Positions 1 through 18,608 of a stretch of DNA of 29,262 bases are shown one piece after another. The stretch is from a virus (taxonomy: Duplodnaviria > Caudoviricetes). Position 1 is the first letter of the stretch. Each line of letters starts with the position of its first letter. The position numbers and the translations under genes were made by a program. The notes under the pieces are model-generated. The model saw only the letters and a list, made by a program, of their open reading frames with translations, had not been told where the DNA came from and made no database searches. The stretch is taken from the IMG/VR virus record IMGVR_UViG_3300037518_000193, positions 1 to 29,262 of that record. One strand, written 5' to 3'.

Positions 1-312
1 GAATGCGCCGAACGCGTCGGCGGCCGCGGACTCCTGCGCCTCGGCCGCGTCGGTGCGGCGGGCCACCTCGGCGTCGACAGCGGTGAGAGCCTGAGCGACT
101 GCGGTGGCGTCCGACACCAGGTCGGCCTTGGCCTCTGGCGCCGCCTTGGCGTGCTCGGCCTTCAACTGGAGGCCGTAGGCGACGAGAGCGTCGCGGGCCT
201 CGGTGATCTGGTCGGCGTCCAGGGATGCGAACGCCTCGGGGGTGATGTTGCCGTCGTCGTCGCGGTGCTCGTCGAGTCCTGCGAGGAATGCGGCGAAGGT
301 GTCGGGGTCCAT
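1..312 (-). CDS. Probable major capsid protein, N-terminal part (runs off window); absent from ORF track
   Basis: ATG at 312 with GGAGG RBS; open frame MDPDTFAAFLAGLDEHRDDDG...AFGAF to position 1; Ala/acidic helical N-terminus; follows capsid protease. Confidence 0.65.
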   Translation of the reverse strand, partial: MDPDTFAAFLAGLDEHRDDDGNITPEAFASLDADQITEARDALVAYGLQLKAEHAKAAPEAKADLVSDATAVAQALTAVDAEVARRTDAAEAQESAAADAFGAF

Positions 313-418: not shown

Positions 419-442
419 CTAGACGCGGCTGAGCCCCCAGCC
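419..442. repeat. 24-bp direct repeat, copy 1
   Basis: CTAGACGCGGCTGAGCCCCCAGCC identical to 684-707. Confidence 0.95.
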
Positions 443-464
443 GGTTACAGGGTGTAACCCCGAA

Positions 465-497
465 CGTACAGAACCCCCGGCTGTTCACCGAGGGTTC
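465..497 (-). terminator. Intrinsic terminator-like hairpin
   Basis: GAACCCTCGG-TGAACAG-CCGGGGGTTC then TGTACGTT; the G-U pair forms only on the minus strand. Confidence 0.65.
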
Positions 498-645
498 CGG
501 CCACGCTGTCTCGGTCATGGCACCGGGAGCCAATTCATAACGTGCTACTCCACACACGGCCGCTTCGATTGGGTACGGCTCCCCAACACCATTACTTCTG
601 GTCCGAGCGTCGGTGCCTACTCGTCTCCCCGTCGGAAGCTTGCCA
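465..645 (-). ncRNA. Candidate ~180-nt structured small RNA
   Basis: Own promoter and terminator; nested stems GGCACC/GGTGCC and GGGAGCC/GGCTCCC; no RBS-supported ORF. Confidence 0.55.
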
Positions 646-651
646 AGAGGC

Positions 652-679
652 AGTGTACTCCACGCCACACGCCTGTCAA
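652..679 (-). promoter_or_regulatory. SigA/sigma70-type promoter
   Basis: TTGACA (679-674), 16 nt, TACACT (657-652). Confidence 0.7.
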
Positions 680-683
680 AGAC

Positions 684-707
684 CTAGACGCGGCTGAGCC
701 CCCAGCC
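684..707. repeat. 24-bp direct repeat, copy 2
   Basis: Identical to 419-442. Confidence 0.95.
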
Positions 708-760: not shown

Positions 761-2101
761 CTACTCGCCCGCTCTCACTTCGGGCGGGGATGTGAACGAC
801 GCGAACAGGGCCGCAGCCTCACGCTCAGCGACCTCGGCCAGGAGCGGCGCCAGATCCTCCCGCAACGCCAACACCTCCGCCGACACCCTGCGCACGATCT
901 CGACAACCGGGTGAGACGGCGCGGCGGGCAACGGCGATAAGGTCGAGTACCGCACCGTCTCACCGGACCTGATGGAAGCGGCGATCGGGAAGCCGGGGAC
1001 GTTCACCACCAGCGCCGCGATGAGCGAATGTCGGTCACCGTGGGGCCGCCAGTCGCCCGACAGTTGGTGACGCCTGAGCGTGTCGATCTGGTCGTCGGTG
1101 ACACCGGGACGCAACGCACCCGACACCCACACCCCGTGAGTGTCCTCACCGGCCCGAACGTAGGCGACCGTCAGCGCAGTGTCGGCGTAGTGGCGGGCAG
1201 CGTCGGCACGGCCCGCGTTGGGTCCGGCGTGCTCGGCGTCCATCGTGATACAGCCGACAGCGACCACGACGTTGTCCTCGCACTCCAGGTGCGAGTTGCT
1301 GTGGAAGTCGGCGTAGTCGGTGCCATCCCGTGGCGGGGTGACACAGACGCCGACATAGCCGCGGTGACAGGTGCCCCACAGGGCCAGGTGTCCGTAGACG
1401 TGGCCGTCGTCGGTGACAGTGACCGGGGTGGGGCCTGCGAGCTCGGGATCGTCGAACCACTGCCGGGGTGGCTTGCGCAGCGACGCCGCGGTGAGGGTCA
1501 CGGTGGCTGCGGCGACCGGTTCGATCTCGGCTGCCTCGAACGCGGGGATGAGGACGATGGTGGCGGCAGCGATCCGGGCCGTCGCCACATCCAACAGCCA
1601 CGACATGCACCAGCCTTCGTCGTCCTCCTGGGTGCATTCCATCTCGGCGTCCATATCGGACAGATGCACCGACACGCCCCGGACCCGGCCCTCGTCCACC
1701 ATCCGTCGGGCCTCCATCGCCTCGTCGTCGGTGTCCCAATCGACGGAGGCCACCACCCATTCGGTGCCGTCACGGTCACGTTTGGCGAAGTCGACCAGGT
1801 TCCCGACGAATACGGCGTCGCCGTGGGCCATCTCGGAGTCGGAGAACGTGAGCGGCAGCGGCGGTTCACGCCACCCGAGGTCACGGAAGATGCGCACGAA
1901 GTTGATCGACCCGTCGTTGGTTTCCACCCCGATCGGGGCGAGCCACGCCAGGTAGGAGTCTGCGGAGCCTTCGATGTCGTCGTCGGCGGCGAGGTGTTCG
2001 ATGGCGGCGACCAGCACCGAAGCTTCGGCGGGGTCGGATGCGTCGGCGGTGAGTGCTCGGTCGGTGTTGAGGGACTGCCAGAGTGCGAGTACGGGGTCCA
2101 T
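761..2101 (-). CDS. Capsid maturation protease-like head protein
   Basis: 446 aa; N-terminal prohead-protease-like region (GVSV, ATIVLIPAF) and GHLALWGTCH..CVTPP..LSGDWR..VNVPGFP domain as in actinophage head proteins; lies between portal and capsid. Confidence 0.75.
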   Translation of the reverse strand: MDPVLALWQSLNTDRALTADASDPAEASVLVAAIEHLAADDDIEGSADSYLAWLAPIGVETNDGSINFVRIFRDLGWREPPLPLTFSDSEMAHGDAVFVGNLVDFAKRDRDGTEWVVASVDWDTDDEAMEARRMVDEGRVRGVSVHLSDMDAEMECTQEDDEGWCMSWLLDVATARIAAATIVLIPAFEAAEIEPVAAATVTLTAASLRKPPRQWFDDPELAGPTPVTVTDDGHVYGHLALWGTCHRGYVGVCVTPPRDGTDYADFHSNSHLECEDNVVVAVGCITMDAEHAGPNAGRADAARHYADTALTVAYVRAGEDTHGVWVSGALRPGVTDDQIDTLRRHQLSGDWRPHGDRHSLIAALVVNVPGFPIAASIRSGETVRYSTLSPLPAAPSHPVVEIVRRVSAEVLALREDLAPLLAEVAEREAAALFASFTSPPEVRAGE

Positions 2102-2133: not shown

Positions 2134-2152
2134 GACGTTAGCGCAAGCGTCG
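2134..2152 (-). repeat. 19-bp repeat, putative promoter/operator, copy 1
   Basis: GACGTTAGCGCAAGCGTCG identical to 3027-3045; contains TAACGT on the minus strand ~35 nt upstream of an ATG. Confidence 0.8.
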
Positions 2153-2163
2153 TACGCAGTGGA

Positions 2164-2457
2164 TCACTCGCGTACTCTGATACTGAACCCCGGCAGCCCG
2201 AGACCGAAATCCGGATCAGACGACGCGGGGCGCATCGGCAGCCGCGCCTCGGTCTCGTCGGGCGAGCAGTGCGGACCACTAGGTGACAGTCCGGCTGGCA
2301 TCCCCGTGAACCTGAACACCTCGGCGCACTGAAGGCACCGTACCCGCACGTCCAGACTGAATGCTATCGGGGACCCGCCTCCATCGCCGGTGATCCGGTT
2401 CATGTCGCAGTCCACCTGGAAGTCCTCATGAGGACACGCTCGGTCTGGATCGATCAT
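2164..2457 (-). CDS. Hypothetical protein with Cys motif (CPHEDF..CLQC)
   Basis: ATG overlaps upstream stop (TGATG); 97 aa. Confidence 0.7.
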   Translation of the reverse strand: MIDPDRACPHEDFQVDCDMNRITGDGGGSPIAFSLDVRVRCLQCAEVFRFTGMPAGLSPSGPHCSPDETEARLPMRPASSDPDFGLGLPGFSIRVRE

Positions 2458-2999
2458 CACCGGTCGTCCTCGTCGGGCACCACCGCCTCGTAAACAGCCT
2501 TGGCCCACCTGGCATCACCGAGGGCCGTATGCCTATCGAAGAGTGACGGGTCCACGCCGATAGCCTTGCTCAGCTCGTCTGAGTTCCACGGGGGACCCCA
2601 TCCCAGCTTGCCTGCCGCTAGTGCTTCGACATCGACGAGGTGATAGTGCCAAGTGGCAGCCTGTCCGTGCCGACGCAACCACGGCCCAAGGAAGGCCGCA
2701 TCGAATGAAGGGGCGGCGCCGACCAGATGCTGCCCGTCTAGCCGCTGTGCGACAGTTGACGCAGCTTGCCGTGGGTCGGACCAATAGCCCCGCTCGTCCT
2801 TCGTGAACGGGTCGCTAGACCTGGGCGAGCGTTCGTAGAACCGTCCGATACGAAGGGCCATCGGGTCGGCAACGGCGAGGTCGGGACGGAATCGGAACTC
2901 GTACTCCTGGCCGATGCCCAGGATGAAGGCCAACTCCCATATCTCGTGTCTGTCGGGGTCGAGACCTGTCGTCTCGGTATCCAAGAACACAACACCCAT
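2457..2999 (-). CDS. DnaQ-like DEDDh 3'-5' exonuclease
   Basis: FLDTETTGL, FDAAFL and HTALGDA motifs; GAAGGGAG RBS. Confidence 0.9.
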   Translation of the reverse strand: MGVVFLDTETTGLDPDRHEIWELAFILGIGQEYEFRFRPDLAVADPMALRIGRFYERSPRSSDPFTKDERGYWSDPRQAASTVAQRLDGQHLVGAAPSFDAAFLGPWLRRHGQAATWHYHLVDVEALAAGKLGWGPPWNSDELSKAIGVDPSLFDRHTALGDARWAKAVYEAVVPDEDDR

Positions 3000-3026
3000 A
3001 GCCGTCTCCCTTCGGTCTTGGGGTCT

Positions 3027-3045
3027 GACGTTAGCGCAAGCGTCG
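3027..3045 (-). repeat. 19-bp repeat, putative promoter/operator, copy 2
   Basis: Identical to 2134-2152. Confidence 0.8.
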
Positions 3046-3222
3046 CATCGCTGCCGCCATCCTCTGGCTCAGCGTCTCCATCTCGTCGGCCAGGGTGCGC
3101 GGTCCGTCACCGCCGAACAGTTCAGCCAGGGTCACCCCGGCGGCGGTGTCATGCTCACAATGGTAGCGGCATCGGCGGTACGGGTCAGGCTGTGGACGCT
3201 CAGGGAGTGCGAGGACCCTCAC
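3031..3222 (-). CDS. Small hypothetical protein (CRYHCEH)
   Basis: GTGA-coupled to upstream gene. Confidence 0.55.
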   Translation of the reverse strand: MRVLALPERPQPDPYRRCRYHCEHDTAAGVTLAELFGGDGPRTLADEMETLSQRMAAAMRRLR

Positions 3223-3482
3223 GCCGCGGGCTTCTTGGTCCGAGCGGGACGGAGCACCTTGTCTGGGTCCTTCGTCCGAGGCTCAACGCTTAGGCCACCG
3301 CTCGCTGCGACGAGTCCAACGACCAACCCGATTGGCCCTAGAGCCAAGGACTCAATGATGGCCTCGCGGCGATCCTCGACCGTCCACGCCAGGGTATCCG
3401 TCCACCACCAACGGTACAGCAGATACCCACCCCAGGCGCATAGCCCCCATACCAGCACCCCAATGAGAACGGCCGTCATCAT
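3219..3482 (-). CDS. Small membrane protein
   Basis: ATGA coupling; two hydrophobic segments. Confidence 0.65.
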   Translation of the reverse strand: MMTAVLIGVLVWGLCAWGGYLLYRWWWTDTLAWTVEDRREAIIESLALGPIGLVVGLVAASGGLSVEPRTKDPDKVLRPARTKKPAA

Positions 3483-3874: not shown

Positions 3875-3901
3875 TACCGTCTCCCTTCGGTTGTCGCCAG
3901 T

Positions 3902-13047: not shown

Positions 13048-13320
13048 TCAGTCGATCCAGGCGGTGTAAGCAGCCGACATCCGTACGAGTGCCGCCACCA
13101 GGTCCGGGTGCTGGTCGTTGAGGGCGACCCGCTGGTCATGGTCGAGGTCCGCCCATGCTTCGGCGACCGCACGCAGTCGGGTCCGTGCCAGCGTGGCGGC
13201 GGTCCACAGGTTCTTCAGCATGTCGAGGGCGTCGTCGAGTGACGGCGCCGGCCCCATCTTGACGAGCCCGAGCGCATCTTCGAGCGTCGGAGTCTTGCGC
13301 GCCTGGTCGGTCATCGTCAC
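13048..13320 (-). CDS. Hypothetical helical protein
   Basis: GTGA-coupled to the SpoU gene; internal repeat PTLEDAL/PSLDDAL. Confidence 0.65.
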   Translation of the reverse strand: MTMTDQARKTPTLEDALGLVKMGPAPSLDDALDMLKNLWTAATLARTRLRAVAEAWADLDHDQRVALNDQHPDLVAALVRMSAAYTAWID

Positions 13321-13820
13321 ACCCAACCGACGAGCTTATAGATGGCGAGCGACGCGGCGACTGCCACATTGAGCGAGTTGCCGACGCCGGTCATCGGGAT
13401 AGCAACGGCGAGGTCGCATAGCGCCAGAGCCTCAGCAGGAACGCCCGTGGTCTCGTGTCCGAGGACCAGGATCGTCGGCCCCAGCACGTCGAGACCGGGC
13501 AGGTCGCGTAAGTCGATGGACTCGTCGGTCAACTCCAGCGCCACCTTCGTCAGTGTCGAGGCGCGGAGATAGGCCAGCGGGTTACCGACCTGGCGGTGGA
13601 TGGTGTTGTGAATGCCGATCGTGTTGCCCTTGCGTAACGCCCTGCTCGCCAGAGCGTCCATCGGCACGACCATCTCAGCGCCGACAGCGTCGCATGTCCG
13701 GGCCAAGGTGCCTAGGTTCTCGCCGGTCTTGGGCCAGAGCGCGGCAACCTGTAGGGGAATGCGCACCGTGGCGGTACGGAGCCGATGCTCTCGCAACTCG
13801 TCCGAAGCGAAGGCTCTCAT
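13317..13820 (-). CDS. SpoU/TrmH-family (SPOUT) RNA 2'-O-methyltransferase
   Basis: NLGTLARTCDAVG, LVLGHETTGV and IPMTGVGNSLNVAVA motifs. Confidence 0.9.
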   Translation of the reverse strand: MRAFASDELREHRLRTATVRIPLQVAALWPKTGENLGTLARTCDAVGAEMVVPMDALASRALRKGNTIGIHNTIHRQVGNPLAYLRASTLTKVALELTDESIDLRDLPGLDVLGPTILVLGHETTGVPAEALALCDLAVAIPMTGVGNSLNVAVAASLAIYKLVGWV

Positions 13821-14241: not shown

Positions 14242-14282
14242 ACCATAACAGGTTTGACAATCCCCTCAAGTTGTCATATATT
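14242..14282. promoter_or_regulatory. Divergent promoters with palindromic operator
   Basis: + strand TTGACA(14254)-N17-TATATT; - strand TGtTATGGT; TGACAA-N10-TTGTCA inverted repeat at 14255-14276. Confidence 0.85.
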
Positions 14283-14851: not shown

Positions 14852-15363
14852 TCTGGGTCATCGTGGCGATGGTGGCGTCGTTCGGTGCAGGTGTCGCCTT
14901 CGTCGGATGCCTCGCCACGCTCCCGAAGGGCTGGACCCTCGGTGTCGCGGTCCGCTCTGTCGTGGACCGGTTCGATGCGTGGGTCGACGAGTTGGTCCGT
15001 GTCCATTGGGTCGACGAGTCGCTGGTCGACGAGGAGCCGCCGCCCTACTCCCCCGACCGCATCTCGGTGCAGGTCTGGTCGGCTGAGAATCCGGCCCCAG
15101 CCGAGTGGGTGTCGGTCATGGATGTAACCGATGGGGGCGTCGACTACTACGACCGGGGCGCGCATCCTGGCCCGGTGCGGCACTTCCCGACCGAGTTCCC
15201 GCCCGGCACCATCTTTGGGTCGCCCAAAGATGACCCGGAGCCATGGCTAGAGGGCGCCTATGACGAGCGGCTAATAAGCTGGCTCGCCGATGTCGCTGCG
15301 CTCCCGCCCGATATGCCGGTCAAGATCATCTTCACGCCGCTCTCGGGCGAGGGGGAGCGATGA
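14848..15363 (+). CDS. Membrane-anchored hypothetical protein
   Basis: N-terminal hydrophobic helix; coupled. Confidence 0.65.
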   Translation: MIWVIVAMVASFGAGVAFVGCLATLPKGWTLGVAVRSVVDRFDAWVDELVRVHWVDESLVDEEPPPYSPDRISVQVWSAENPAPAEWVSVMDVTDGGVDYYDRGAHPGPVRHFPTEFPPGTIFGSPKDDPEPWLEGAYDERLISWLADVAALPPDMPVKIIFTPLSGEGER

Positions 15364-16307
15364 CCTTTCACGGTGTCGCCCTCCCCGCCCTCACCCGCGA
15401 CGAGTGGCTGGCCGAGCGCCGTAACGGTCTCGGCGCCTCCGATGTCCCCGCCCTCCTGGGCCTGTCCCCGTACTCCACCCCGTGGCAGGTGTGGGTTTCC
15501 AAGGTGACCGACGCCCCCGACTCCGACCCGTCCGAGGCGATGGAGTGGGGTCTCGCCCTAGAGGATGCGATCCTGACCCGCTGGGCCGACCGTGAACGCT
15601 TGTTCGTCGGGCACCGCGCTGAGGCGTGGCGTCACCCCGAGTACAAGTGGGCACGGGCAACACCCGACGGCCTGCTGTTCACTGACCCCGACGACGATGA
15701 CGCGGAGCCGTGGGCTGTGGTCGACGTCAAGAATGTCCGTAGCGGCGCAGACGAATGGGACCGCGGCGACACCGTGCCCCCCTACATCGTCGCCCAGGTC
15801 CAGTGGCAGATGTTCGTCACCGGCCTCGACCGCGGCTTTGTGGTCGCCCTCATCGGCGGTAACCGGCTCCACGTCCACGAACTCGAAGCCGACCCTGCTG
15901 CCCACGCCGAGATGTTCCAGGTGAGCCAGGAGTGGTGGGACCGTCACGTCGTGAGCGGCGAACCGCCCCAGGTGGAGGCCGCCGACAATGCGCTGCTGGC
16001 GTCACTGTGGCCGACGTCGACAGAGAAGGCGGTCGAGGTGGACCCCGAGCTCGTCGCTGAGCTTCGCGCTGCCCGTGCCGGCGCCAAGGTGGCTGAGGCC
16101 CGTAAGGATGAGGCCGAGGCTCGTCTCAAGGCGGCGTTGGGTGATGCCGATACGGCGGTGTGTGACGGGCGCGTGGCTGCGACGTGGCGTACCCAGTCGT
16201 CGACCCGTGTCGATGTGACTCGGCTGCGTGCCGCCGAGCCTGAGGTGGCGGCTCGTTTCACCACGACGTCCACGACCCGTGTGCTACGACCCAAGGAGGA
16301 CAAGTGA
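15360..16307 (+). CDS. YqaJ-like (lambda-exo/RecE type) recombination exonuclease
   Basis: WLAERRNGLGASD, LGLSPY, ATPDG, DVKN and QVQWQM motifs. Confidence 0.92.
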   Translation: MTFHGVALPALTRDEWLAERRNGLGASDVPALLGLSPYSTPWQVWVSKVTDAPDSDPSEAMEWGLALEDAILTRWADRERLFVGHRAEAWRHPEYKWARATPDGLLFTDPDDDDAEPWAVVDVKNVRSGADEWDRGDTVPPYIVAQVQWQMFVTGLDRGFVVALIGGNRLHVHELEADPAAHAEMFQVSQEWWDRHVVSGEPPQVEAADNALLASLWPTSTEKAVEVDPELVAELRAARAGAKVAEARKDEAEARLKAALGDADTAVCDGRVAATWRTQSSTRVDVTRLRAAEPEVAARFTTTSTTRVLRPKEDK

Positions 16308-16651
16308 TGGGACGGAACCGATCAACCACCGAACTACTGAAGCCATTCGCCGTTGAACTCGGCGTGGCTATCGACGCTGCAACACCATGCAACGTATGCC
16401 ACGGGACCGGTGTGCGCCTTGGTGTAGTGCCGATCAATGGGCCGCTCTACTCGGCACTCAACAGCGGGACCAAGGGCGCGAAGTCGTCTTACGCCCTGGC
16501 GCACCTGCGGTCCAAGACGAACAGCTTCAAGGTGGACGATGCCCGGTGGCTTGCCGACCACCACTTCGGCGGCGACCTGGCAGCAGCGATCGACTTCCGC
16601 GATCGACTCGCCCACGCCATCGCGGCCCACGATGAGGAGGACAAGGAATGA
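16304..16651 (+). CDS. Hypothetical protein with one CxxCxGxG motif
   Basis: AAGGAGG RBS; CNVCHGTG. Confidence 0.65.
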   Translation: MMGRNRSTTELLKPFAVELGVAIDAATPCNVCHGTGVRLGVVPINGPLYSALNSGTKGAKSSYALAHLRSKTNSFKVDDARWLADHHFGGDLAAAIDFRDRLAHAIAAHDEEDKE

Positions 16652-16812
16652 CCGAGCACGCCCGAGAGTCAGAAGGCCCGTCGACCTCGTGGATCAGGAA
16701 CCACCACGAGACGCTGGAGGGGGCCGAGGCGCTGCGGTGGGACGAGCACCAGGCCGAGGTTCGTGAGGCCAAGGCGGACGACGAGAGGAAGGCACGCTAT
16801 GCAAAGGGTTAG
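16648..16812 (+). CDS. 54-aa hypothetical protein
   Basis: GAGGAGG RBS; ATGA coupling. Confidence 0.55.
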   Translation: MTEHARESEGPSTSWIRNHHETLEGAEALRWDEHQAEVREAKADDERKARYAKG

Positions 16813-16993
16813 TGACCACTACCTCGACAGCAGCCGGGTCGACATGATCGTGGCTGCCGAACGTGATGAGCGGGCACGCATCGAGTACGAGGGCGGGACT
16901 GTGATCTCGCAGCGTTACCTTCGCACCATCTCGGACGGCGCCATCATCCGCACCGAGTACGACCAGCCCGACGAGGTCGACGATGCCCGCTGA
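16799..16993 (+). CDS. Hypothetical protein
   Basis: AGGAAGG RBS. Confidence 0.5.
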   Translation: MQRVSDHYLDSSRVDMIVAAERDERARIEYEGGTVISQRYLRTISDGAIIRTEYDQPDEVDDAR

Positions 16994-17072
16994 ACTCTGG
17001 CTCGCAGTCCTGCGCCTGGTCGCCCTCGTCGCTGGCTGGTGGAGTCTCCACCCGCTGATCGGGCGGTGGTGA
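16983..17072 (+). CDS. 29-aa hydrophobic peptide
   Basis: GAGG RBS; MPAELWLAVLRLVALVAGWWSLHPLIGRW; TGATG coupling. Confidence 0.45.
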   Translation: MPAELWLAVLRLVALVAGWWSLHPLIGRW

Positions 17073-17338
17073 TGGGCGACCACCGCTTTGATCCGCCTCT
17101 GGTGATTGACGTCCGGTGCCGCTGGTGCGGACAGGGCCTAGCCGTGACCTCCCAGCATTGGGGCTCTGGGCTAGTCATCGAAGGGCTGGATGATCTCTCG
17201 TTTATCCATGAGGACGGTAACCCGGAATGCATCCAGACCTACCACGCCCAGCCCTTCGACGGTTGGGGTGCGACGCGAAAGTTCCGGGTCGCTCTTGAGC
17301 GCTACTACTTGGCTCGGGATGAGGCGTCAGATGACTGA
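17072..17338 (+). CDS. Hypothetical protein (CRWCG..H..C)
   Basis: Coupled start; Cys motif. Confidence 0.6.
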   Translation: MGDHRFDPPLVIDVRCRWCGQGLAVTSQHWGSGLVIEGLDDLSFIHEDGNPECIQTYHAQPFDGWGATRKFRVALERYYLARDEASDD

Positions 17339-17621
17339 CCTGTTCGACCCCGCTACCCGTGGCTCGAGTTGGACCGCCTGTGACGACTGCGGCGCCCGAT
17401 GGACCGGTGAGAACGAATCCCATTGTTCCATTTGCCATAGACACCTCGGCGGTCTCGGCCTGTTCGAGCGTCACATCAAGCACGGCCGCTGCCTCTCAGA
17501 CAGGGCACTCAGGGAGCGGGGGATGCGTAAGCAGTATCGGGAGCCACGGTGCCCGGTTTGGCGCCTCGGTGGTGCCGTATTGGTACCTCTGCCGCAAGAT
17601 GAGGAGGACGGCGATGAGTGA
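17331..17621 (+). CDS. Zinc-finger protein (FDxHR-like)
   Basis: CDDCG..HCSICH..FERH..C. Confidence 0.7.
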   Translation: MTDLFDPATRGSSWTACDDCGARWTGENESHCSICHRHLGGLGLFERHIKHGRCLSDRALRERGMRKQYREPRCPVWRLGGAVLVPLPQDEEDGDE

Positions 17622-17814
17622 ACTGGAGTGGGTGGGGCTACGTGAGATCGCCGCCATGCTCGGGATCTCGTACCCGGCGGTCCAGCGCAGGGTGGAACGT
17701 GGCACGCTACCCGCTGCTGAGGAACGGATCTCAGGTAACCCGGTGTGGCGTCGTGCCACCATCAAGGCGTACCAGGCAGAGGCGAAGCGACTGAGCGAAG
17801 GAGAGGCGACATGA
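17614..17814 (+). CDS. AlpA/excisionase-like HTH protein
   Basis: VGLREIAAMLGIS..RGTLP..PVWRRATI; GAGGAGG RBS. Confidence 0.8.
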   Translation: MSELEWVGLREIAAMLGISYPAVQRRVERGTLPAAEERISGNPVWRRATIKAYQAEAKRLSEGEAT

Positions 17815-18608
17815 CCACCACCGCAATCAAGGCCCGCGGCGAGGACCCGCCCGTCATCGCGCTGTTGAAGCAGTTCGATGCCGACATCACCCAGGCGCTC
17901 CCTCGAGACTGGAGCCCCGGACGATTCCAGCAATCCGTCATCTCCGTCGTCCGCAGCAACCGGGCACTCCTCAACGTGGAGGCGATCACCCTCGTGTCGT
18001 CGGTGCTGCTCGCCGCCCAACTCGGTCTCGACCCGTCCCCCGGTGCCGCGCAGTGCTGGATCATCCCGCGGCGCAACTCCAAGACCGGCAAGCAGGAGGC
18101 GTCGATGCAGGTGGCGGCTCGGGGGTGGCGTGATCTGGCGATGCGGTCGCCGAAGGTGGCGACGGTCGAGGACCGGATCGTGCGTGAGGGCGACGAGTTC
18201 CAGTTCCAGTACGGGGCGGGCGGGACCGCGTGGTCGCACCGGCCTAAGGGCACCGTCGGCCGCGATTGGGTCTACGTGTACTGCGTGGCTCGGATGGTGA
18301 CGGGCGGCGAGTACTTCGAGGCGTGGACCAAGGAGGAGGTGTTGGCTCACCGGGACCGGTACTCGGATGACTGGAAGCGCAACAAGGCGAAGTCGTCGTG
18401 GGGCCGCGAGGAGGAGGGCATGGCTCGTAAGACCCTGGTGATCCAGGTGGCGAAGCGGCTGCCGACGACGCCAGAGATTCGGGCGGCGCTCGTGGCTGAC
18501 GAGACGACGCCGCACAGGATCGACCCTGACATCGTGGGATTGCTGGAGGACGAGGCCGGCATCATCGAGGGTGACCTAGTGGACGAGGACGATGGAGGGG
18601 AGTCGTGA
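17811..18608 (+). CDS. recT: RecT-family ssDNA annealing protein
   Basis: AAQLGLDP, CWIIP, RGWRDLAMRS, VREGDEF and MARKT motifs; same operon as the YqaJ exonuclease. Confidence 0.9.
   Translation: MTTTAIKARGEDPPVIALLKQFDADITQALPRDWSPGRFQQSVISVVRSNRALLNVEAITLVSSVLLAAQLGLDPSPGAAQCWIIPRRNSKTGKQEASMQVAARGWRDLAMRSPKVATVEDRIVREGDEFQFQYGAGGTAWSHRPKGTVGRDWVYVYCVARMVTGGEYFEAWTKEEVLAHRDRYSDDWKRNKAKSSWGREEEGMARKTLVIQVAKRLPTTPEIRAALVADETTPHRIDPDIVGLLEDEAGIIEGDLVDEDDGGES

Follow-up and report, generated by a model that had tools for sequence, protein, structure and literature searches.

Lambdoid morons of the HK97 gene 15 type, as described in PMC3594210, are protein genes present as extra DNA relative to close kin, situated inside the virion operon and provided with a promoter, a terminator and a G+C content unlike that of their neighbours. 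For T4-type phages, the account of Arbiol et al. (PMC2839356) describes shuffling by PeSL elements, a family of ~100-bp sequences, each a promoter plus a stem-loop, with about 50 per genome; a filled site contains two stem-loop repeats and an empty site one, and a mini-circle intermediate is possible. Tree et al. (PMC4104026) describe sRNA and anti-sRNA genes that occupy moron sites in lambdoid prophages, and PMC7067206 describes ncRNAs of the BTP1 prophage; in both, small RNAs form accessory late-region cargo. The RNAs of those reports are either bound by Hfq, 51-60 nt long and arranged as convergent pairs next to protein morons, or antisense. RNA anti-CRISPRs (Racrs), as presented in PMC10651486, are promoter-driven phage small RNAs that act as decoys for host proteins. 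Since small RNAs at moron sites in enteric prophages and RNA decoys are both known, the cargo proposed below belongs to a kind already known; no description of the predicted RNA, or of its protein-free, repeat-bounded form, was found in open-access literature. Accessory cargo is found by looking for genes, so that RNA-only phage cargo is nearly invisible.

The window, that is, the whole stretch of DNA analysed here, is an entire virus record of 29,262 bases, with a completeness estimate of 38%. On the minus strand the gene order is terminase, portal, a few small genes, capsid maturation protease and the start of the major capsid gene. The locus of interest lies between the last two, and its limits and the genes relevant to it are as follows.

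1..312, minus strand: major capsid gene, 5' end (flank), 38% over 104 aa to an ORF of the relative L135
419..442, minus strand: downstream repeat copy, 24 bp
443..683, minus strand: unique cargo, 241 bp, missing in the relative L127
443..459, no strand assigned: 7-pair palindrome at the right end of the cargo, beyond the terminator-like hairpin
684..707, minus strand: upstream repeat copy, 24 bp, present at the L127 empty site
761..2101, minus strand: capsid maturation protease gene (flank)
15360..18608, plus strand: RecE-like exonuclease gene (15360-16307) and RecT-like annealase gene (up to 18608)

The L135 ORF itself matches phrog_777, a major head protein, which bears out an earlier note on this DNA in which the gene downstream of the cassette was taken for the capsid gene. 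The best prophage relative, among 36 genome loci, is L221 in an Acidimicrobiia assembly, and the phage matches of the genome are almost all to actinophages; for these reasons the host is likely to be an actinobacterium. No integrase or repressor was identified among the ORFs scanned (a 31-ORF scan plus further ORF sets, in a record representing ~38% of the genome). An RNA methyltransferase gene of the SpoU family is encoded at 13317-13820 (PF00588, E 5.7e-22).

The identical 24-mers at 419-442 and 684-707, reported in the earlier note, are present and constitute the only exact 24-mer repeat in the window; no such repeat arose in 100 order-4 Markov simulations of it. A metagenome scan with the protease as query yielded two loci, one of which, L127, is 93.1% identical to the window over 1469 nt on one side of the cassette and 97.6% identical over 328 nt on the other. 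L127 carries a single copy of the repeat and lacks the 241 bp between the copies, and is thus a true empty site, seen in one genome. Because it has one copy with nothing between, the unit comprises the 241 bp plus one repeat, or 265 bp. The earlier note had claimed gain or loss by recombination between the repeats and had predicted just such a single-repeat site. That claim is borne out, and it is apparent that the cassette is a real, optional 265-bp piece of DNA lying between the protease gene and the capsid gene, which the window has and L127 does not.

The G+C content of the cargo is 60.6%, as compared with 66.7% for the window, a modest gap of a sort that non-coding DNA shows anyway. A longer hairpin follows the protease stop codon in both the window and L127; its 3' arm, which pairs with 731-722, consists of ten bases of the repeat (705-696), for which reason the repeat looks like a duplicated target sequence. 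The palindrome of the repeat occurs exactly at just these two places in the window. The sequences that follow the two repeat copies have no significant likeness (343 of 2000 shuffles). Each copy has a -35-like hexamer 4 bp further on; past the downstream copy this hexamer belongs to a weaker promoter-like sequence for the capsid gene (414-409 plus 389-384), read by eye and not called by the scan.

Within the cassette, predicted transcription signals were located as follows.

652..679, minus strand: sigma-70/SigA-type promoter match, TTGACA-16-TACACT, beginning 4 bp after the repeat
466..645, minus strand: predicted ~180-nt transcript, from the promoter match and the hairpin
466..499, minus strand: terminator-like hairpin, either 13 pairs (499-469) or an 8-pair stem (494-487/481-474) followed by a tail (473-466)

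The promoter, proposed earlier with the same hexamers and spacing, was recovered at 679..652 with 10 of 12 matches. In positions 1-2000 it is the one site found, against 0.2 expected, and it is the second-best of four sites in the whole window; transcription would start near 645-644. The strongest sigma-70-type match (14254-14282, 11 of 12) is divergent, heading the rightward RecE/RecT block. The hairpin at 499-469 has a predicted pairing probability of 0.99 and is far more stable than shuffles (z -4.91 and -4.40). It had been placed at 471-497 as a terminator; the hairpin itself holds up and is slightly longer than supposed, but the terminator scan did not call it, because only four of the eight bases in the tail after the 8-pair stem are T. 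Mycobacterial polymerase is described as terminating at hairpins with imperfect U tails (PMC3993855). The promoter is situated near one end of the cargo and the hairpin near the other, on the same strand, and it is probable, on these predicted signals, that the promoter fires, the hairpin stops transcription and a discrete ~180-nt RNA is made. We tentatively propose, with a little less than even confidence, that the cassette is an optional RNA-only moron whose ~180-nt non-coding RNA, acting in trans, would serve as a decoy that binds a host RNA-binding protein.

Given the weak tail and the absence of a call by the terminator scan, read-through into the capsid gene is possible. The main rival explanation is accordingly one in which the cassette acts in cis, adding an extra host-polymerase promoter and a leaky or switchable attenuator that would alter the timing or strength of transcription of the capsid and downstream genes. 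The promoter is indeed directed towards the capsid gene, at a distance of 330 bp, the hairpin has a weak tail, the -35-like hexamers lie 4 bp past both repeat copies, and a 10-pair alternative helix (531-522 with 481-472) could disrupt the hairpin. Forcing that helix, however, costs 11.6 kcal/mol, and the stretch 530-484 folds no better than shuffles; a leader-peptide attenuator was rejected on the same two results. Nor is the cargo a tandem duplication of the native capsid leader, to which it has no significant similarity (263 of 500 shuffles score as well). Cargo motifs at 490-474 and 459-443 resemble capsid-leader motifs at 360-345 and 416-401, in the opposite order, in an alignment that is not significant.

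Rfam gave no riboswitch or leader match in the cargo. The predicted RNA resembles actinobacterial translational T-box leaders in its length and in words of the AGUA/GAA type, but the cargo, unlike those leaders, does not contain their conserved T-box word. As the Rfam T-box model scores the leaders of the likely host class below its cut-off (found in 8 of 81 genomes, none above the cut-off), the eight T-box-like leaders were aligned and a profile of them tested, with no match on the cargo at E values up to 20; an actinobacterial T-box leader was thereby rejected as a candidate. Among these eight leaders (L338-L345), the first stem is long in some and short in others. A cis-acting role of the cassette is considered rather unlikely.

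The fold of the predicted RNA was also considered. Over the whole 204 nt the folding z-score is -1.81, owed mostly to the last hairpins, while shuffled sequences match the core in stability (z -0.98 and -1.04). The core fold put forward previously is not supported by these statistics: the GGGAGCC/GGCUCCC helix has a predicted probability of 0.02-0.11, the CGUG/CACG helix of 0.12-0.14 and the ACCA hairpin of 0.07-0.57. The outer GGCACCG/CGGUGCC helix has a probability of 0.75 or 0.08, depending on the 3' end chosen, the lower value being obtained with the end at 465, which is likely to be the real one. A competing fold is a long irregular rod over 644-558 (z -1.55). The fold of the earlier note has an energy of -33.1 kcal/mol; at its best the same stretch reaches -45.3 when folded freely and -41.4 when the two stacked helices of that note are retained. 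The three RAGUAR motifs, described earlier as reminiscent of loop-E or tertiary motifs, are located as follows.

545..622, minus strand: three RAGUAR motifs, at 622-617, 597-592 and 550-545

At least three such motifs occurred in only 0.2% of 5000 shuffles and in 2 of 1164 sliding windows, figures that apply to a motif picked after the sequence had been seen. Their presence and rarity thus stand; the loop-E reading, and with it the structured RNA built on the proposed helices, finds no support in the folding statistics, and in the predicted ensembles the hexamers are free of pairing just in part. A comparison by eye with the consensus geometries of ribozymes, K-turns, loop E and CRISPR handles gave no fit.

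Searches for known families and homologues were likewise negative. The best Rfam covariance-model E values were 2.1-6.9, none of them over the cargo core, and riboswitch, ribozyme, sRNA and CRISPR repeat families were unmatched, so that the description of the RNA as undescribed holds as far as Rfam and the other searches reach. ARAGORN found no tRNA or tmRNA gene in the window. With blastn, no cargo homologue was found in phages, and plasmids gave one 26-nt match (E 3). Five DNA-pattern scans of viral contigs returned at least 120, 0, 4, 6 and 26 loci, and among the matches listed none was cargo-like outside the pattern; one strict DNA pattern returned none from genome contigs. Sets of 401 genomes were taken from the class, the phylum and the order to which the best prophage relative's genome belongs, and DNA searches of them gave 2, 0 and 0 matches, respectively, the two at class level being of 24-28 nt in unrelated contexts. 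A covariance model built from the single window sequence and the previously proposed fold reached a best foreign score of 15 bits over 100, 71 and 13 sources; over 151 genomes it gave three matches of 19.7-24.7 bits, two in protein-coding DNA and a third that breaks many of the pairs. Homologue searches of these types miss diverged RNAs, the genome sets are samples, and the metagenome scan had the protease as its query. The cargo matches the rest of the window over at most 12 nt, and no antisense target of more than 12 nt was found for the predicted RNA in the sequenced 38% of the genome.

That the cargo is a singleton in every search, with an ordinary core fold, would also fit a captured or decayed fragment with no current job, either a foreign promoter-leader-terminator or a gene-less moron, kept because it is recent and cheap. 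A copy of a ribosome-binding motif, at two edits and with no start codon after it, near 635, is consistent with such decay. The promoter and hairpin, however, are intact and neatly placed at the two ends, and no frame matches a protein family, and a fragment of this sort is considered unlikely. Decay from the gene of a second cassette in the window (see below) was rejected, the shared GCCGGGG word being coding-constrained in that gene.

It had been claimed that the cassette is non-coding, and the data agree. The codon-position G+C content of the cargo is flat (0.59-0.62), and that of its one long frame is 0.60/0.64/0.59, as compared with third-position values of 0.73-0.89 in five neighbouring genes. 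This frame had no relatives in a word-indexed protein search, and the cassette frames had no match in Pfam or PHROGs. Against 1.84 billion representative proteins the long frame gave two matches, both internally repeated, unrelated-looking proteins, which we read as spurious. A 93-aa ORF at 387-668 was rejected as a gene, since it exits the cassette and has neither a coding signature nor credible relatives. A protein-coding gene, the mark of a moron, was sought inside the cassette, and just one short ORF was found, which modifies the earlier statement that no ORF is supported by a ribosome-binding site.

515..551, minus strand: GGAG (551-548), 9 nt, then a 7-codon ORF (538-515)

The transcript could on this basis be the message for a micro-peptide, or a ribosome-trapping mini-gene. 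The GGAG lies 9 nt before the ATG and is predicted to be 53-84% unpaired. In the same protease-capsid gap, L135 (4218-4298) and L128 (about 3143-3223), which are more distant relatives (53% identical), hold a conserved 26-aa ORF with a strong ribosome-binding motif, on the other strand, which suggests that this slot takes accessory cargo. Such short ORFs are nevertheless common by chance, and the leader would be about 105 nt long; a micro-peptide moron is regarded as improbable.

A second indel of similar form was found in the same head module.

2134..3045, minus strand: second cassette, 893 bp, with an exonuclease gene (PF00929) and a conserved gene of ~100 aa; 19-bp direct repeats lie at its two ends (2134-2152 and 3027-3045), and L127 does not have it

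The ~100-aa gene has 115 relatives. The 19-mer occurs once in L127, where it forms the last bases of the gene upstream and contributes to a 10-pair hairpin, and the downstream copy in the window re-forms this empty-site hairpin. At two positions the window copies agree with each other but not with L127, a pattern that favours recent duplication in the lineage of the window, although L127 may instead have changed later. Of 100 simulated windows, 4 contained a 19-mer repeat; the evidence for the second cassette is therefore its empty site and not the length of its repeat. Of 51 loci that carry a relative of the second cassette's gene, a single one is flanked by a repeat of at least 17 bp, so that the repeats go with these insertion events rather than with the cargo. 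A third indel, a 243-bp ORF at 3235-3477, is absent from L127 and lacks a long repeat; the 5' half of the gene upstream of it also differs between the window and L127. An identical 15-bp start-associated motif precedes two genes, at 3002-3016 and 3877-3891, and two-edit copies of it occur at about 14300 and within the cargo near 635.

Two insertions with 19-24-bp duplications, both at hairpins, and the pattern of shared bases fitting a recent duplication in the second, could indicate a non-autonomous mobile element, of the guide-RNA or bridge-RNA type, that makes its own long target duplication. Yet the contig contains one copy, the two cargoes are unrelated, and relatives of the second cassette's gene, at 50 of those 51 loci, do not bring such a repeat with them. 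The longest word shared by the RNA and the empty site is 6 nt, at or below the level of shuffles (168 of 200 gave 7 or more), on which result a guide or bridge RNA was rejected; the element is very improbable. An assembly artefact in the window or L127 is hardly credible, even with one contig for each state, as the 241-bp insert is unique sequence, L127 is a separate strain whose other indels are likewise coherent, and a 24-bp repeat is much shorter than sequencing reads.

To return to the RNA-only moron acting through a decoy, host RNA polymerase would make the ~180-nt non-coding RNA from the cassette promoter, and this RNA would bind a host RNA-binding protein in trans. A decoy was chosen because of the purine-rich hexamer present three times, the lack of a long complement in the sequenced part of the phage, and the fact that the cassette is dispensable for head building; taken on its own, the decoy role is the weakest step and is doubtful. 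The earlier note had listed decoy, antitoxin and packaging RNAs as candidate roles; an essential packaging role is unlikely, since the close relative L127 does without the cassette. The cassette would first have arisen when foreign DNA inserted at the hairpin and the target was duplicated, an origin likewise proposed for the second cassette. Thereafter, RecT-type annealing at the 24-bp repeat would lead to its loss, or to its regain from a 265-bp circle, and the phage's own RecE and RecT are candidate agents of such repeat-mediated events. For Red-beta, PMC3945230 puts the shortest length that allows pairing at 23-27 bp, a range that includes the 24-bp repeat, and deletion across direct repeats is noted in PMC5630979. 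A speculative extension, and a rather unlikely one, is that the cargo represents a family of structured phage RNAs not yet catalogued, of which it would be the first member, carried in protein-free repeat-bounded cassettes, possibly as 265-bp circles, and neutralising a host defence or RNA-binding protein in Actinomycetota.

Having both a filled and an empty allele locates the ends of the cassette exactly, an uncommon situation for a candidate phage RNA, and the 265 bp would make a convenient test construct. The presence of two repeat-bounded cassettes in a single head module suggests a simple screen for further RNAs of this kind, in which filled and empty sites are compared for 19-24-bp duplications. 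Should the decoy prove true, it would join a short list of RNA-based counter-defences, from a host group whose phage small RNAs are little studied.

With respect to the systems described at the outset, the cassette resembles the lambdoid morons of PMC3594210 in being extra DNA relative to close kin inside the virion operon, with a promoter match, a terminator-like signal (both predicted here) and a G+C content unlike its neighbours; it differs in having no protein gene and in being bounded by a 24-bp duplication. As with PeSL (PMC2839356), the filled site has two repeats and the empty site one, the repeat adjoins a promoter, and a mini-circle intermediate is possible; but this repeat is 24 bp long, has two copies and no promoter inside it, the cargo is non-coding, and the phage type and host are others. 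Like the RNAs of PMC4104026 and PMC7067206, the predicted RNA would be accessory late-region cargo, although at ~180 nt, alone, on the late-gene strand and with no antisense target found, it departs from those reported there. With the Racrs of PMC10651486 it would share a promoter-driven decoy role, as proposed here; unlike them, it has no Rfam CRISPR-repeat match, and its repeat lies outside the predicted transcript. The cassette would thus work like a moron that has no protein gene, and would move in the manner of a PeSL cassette although it is not one.
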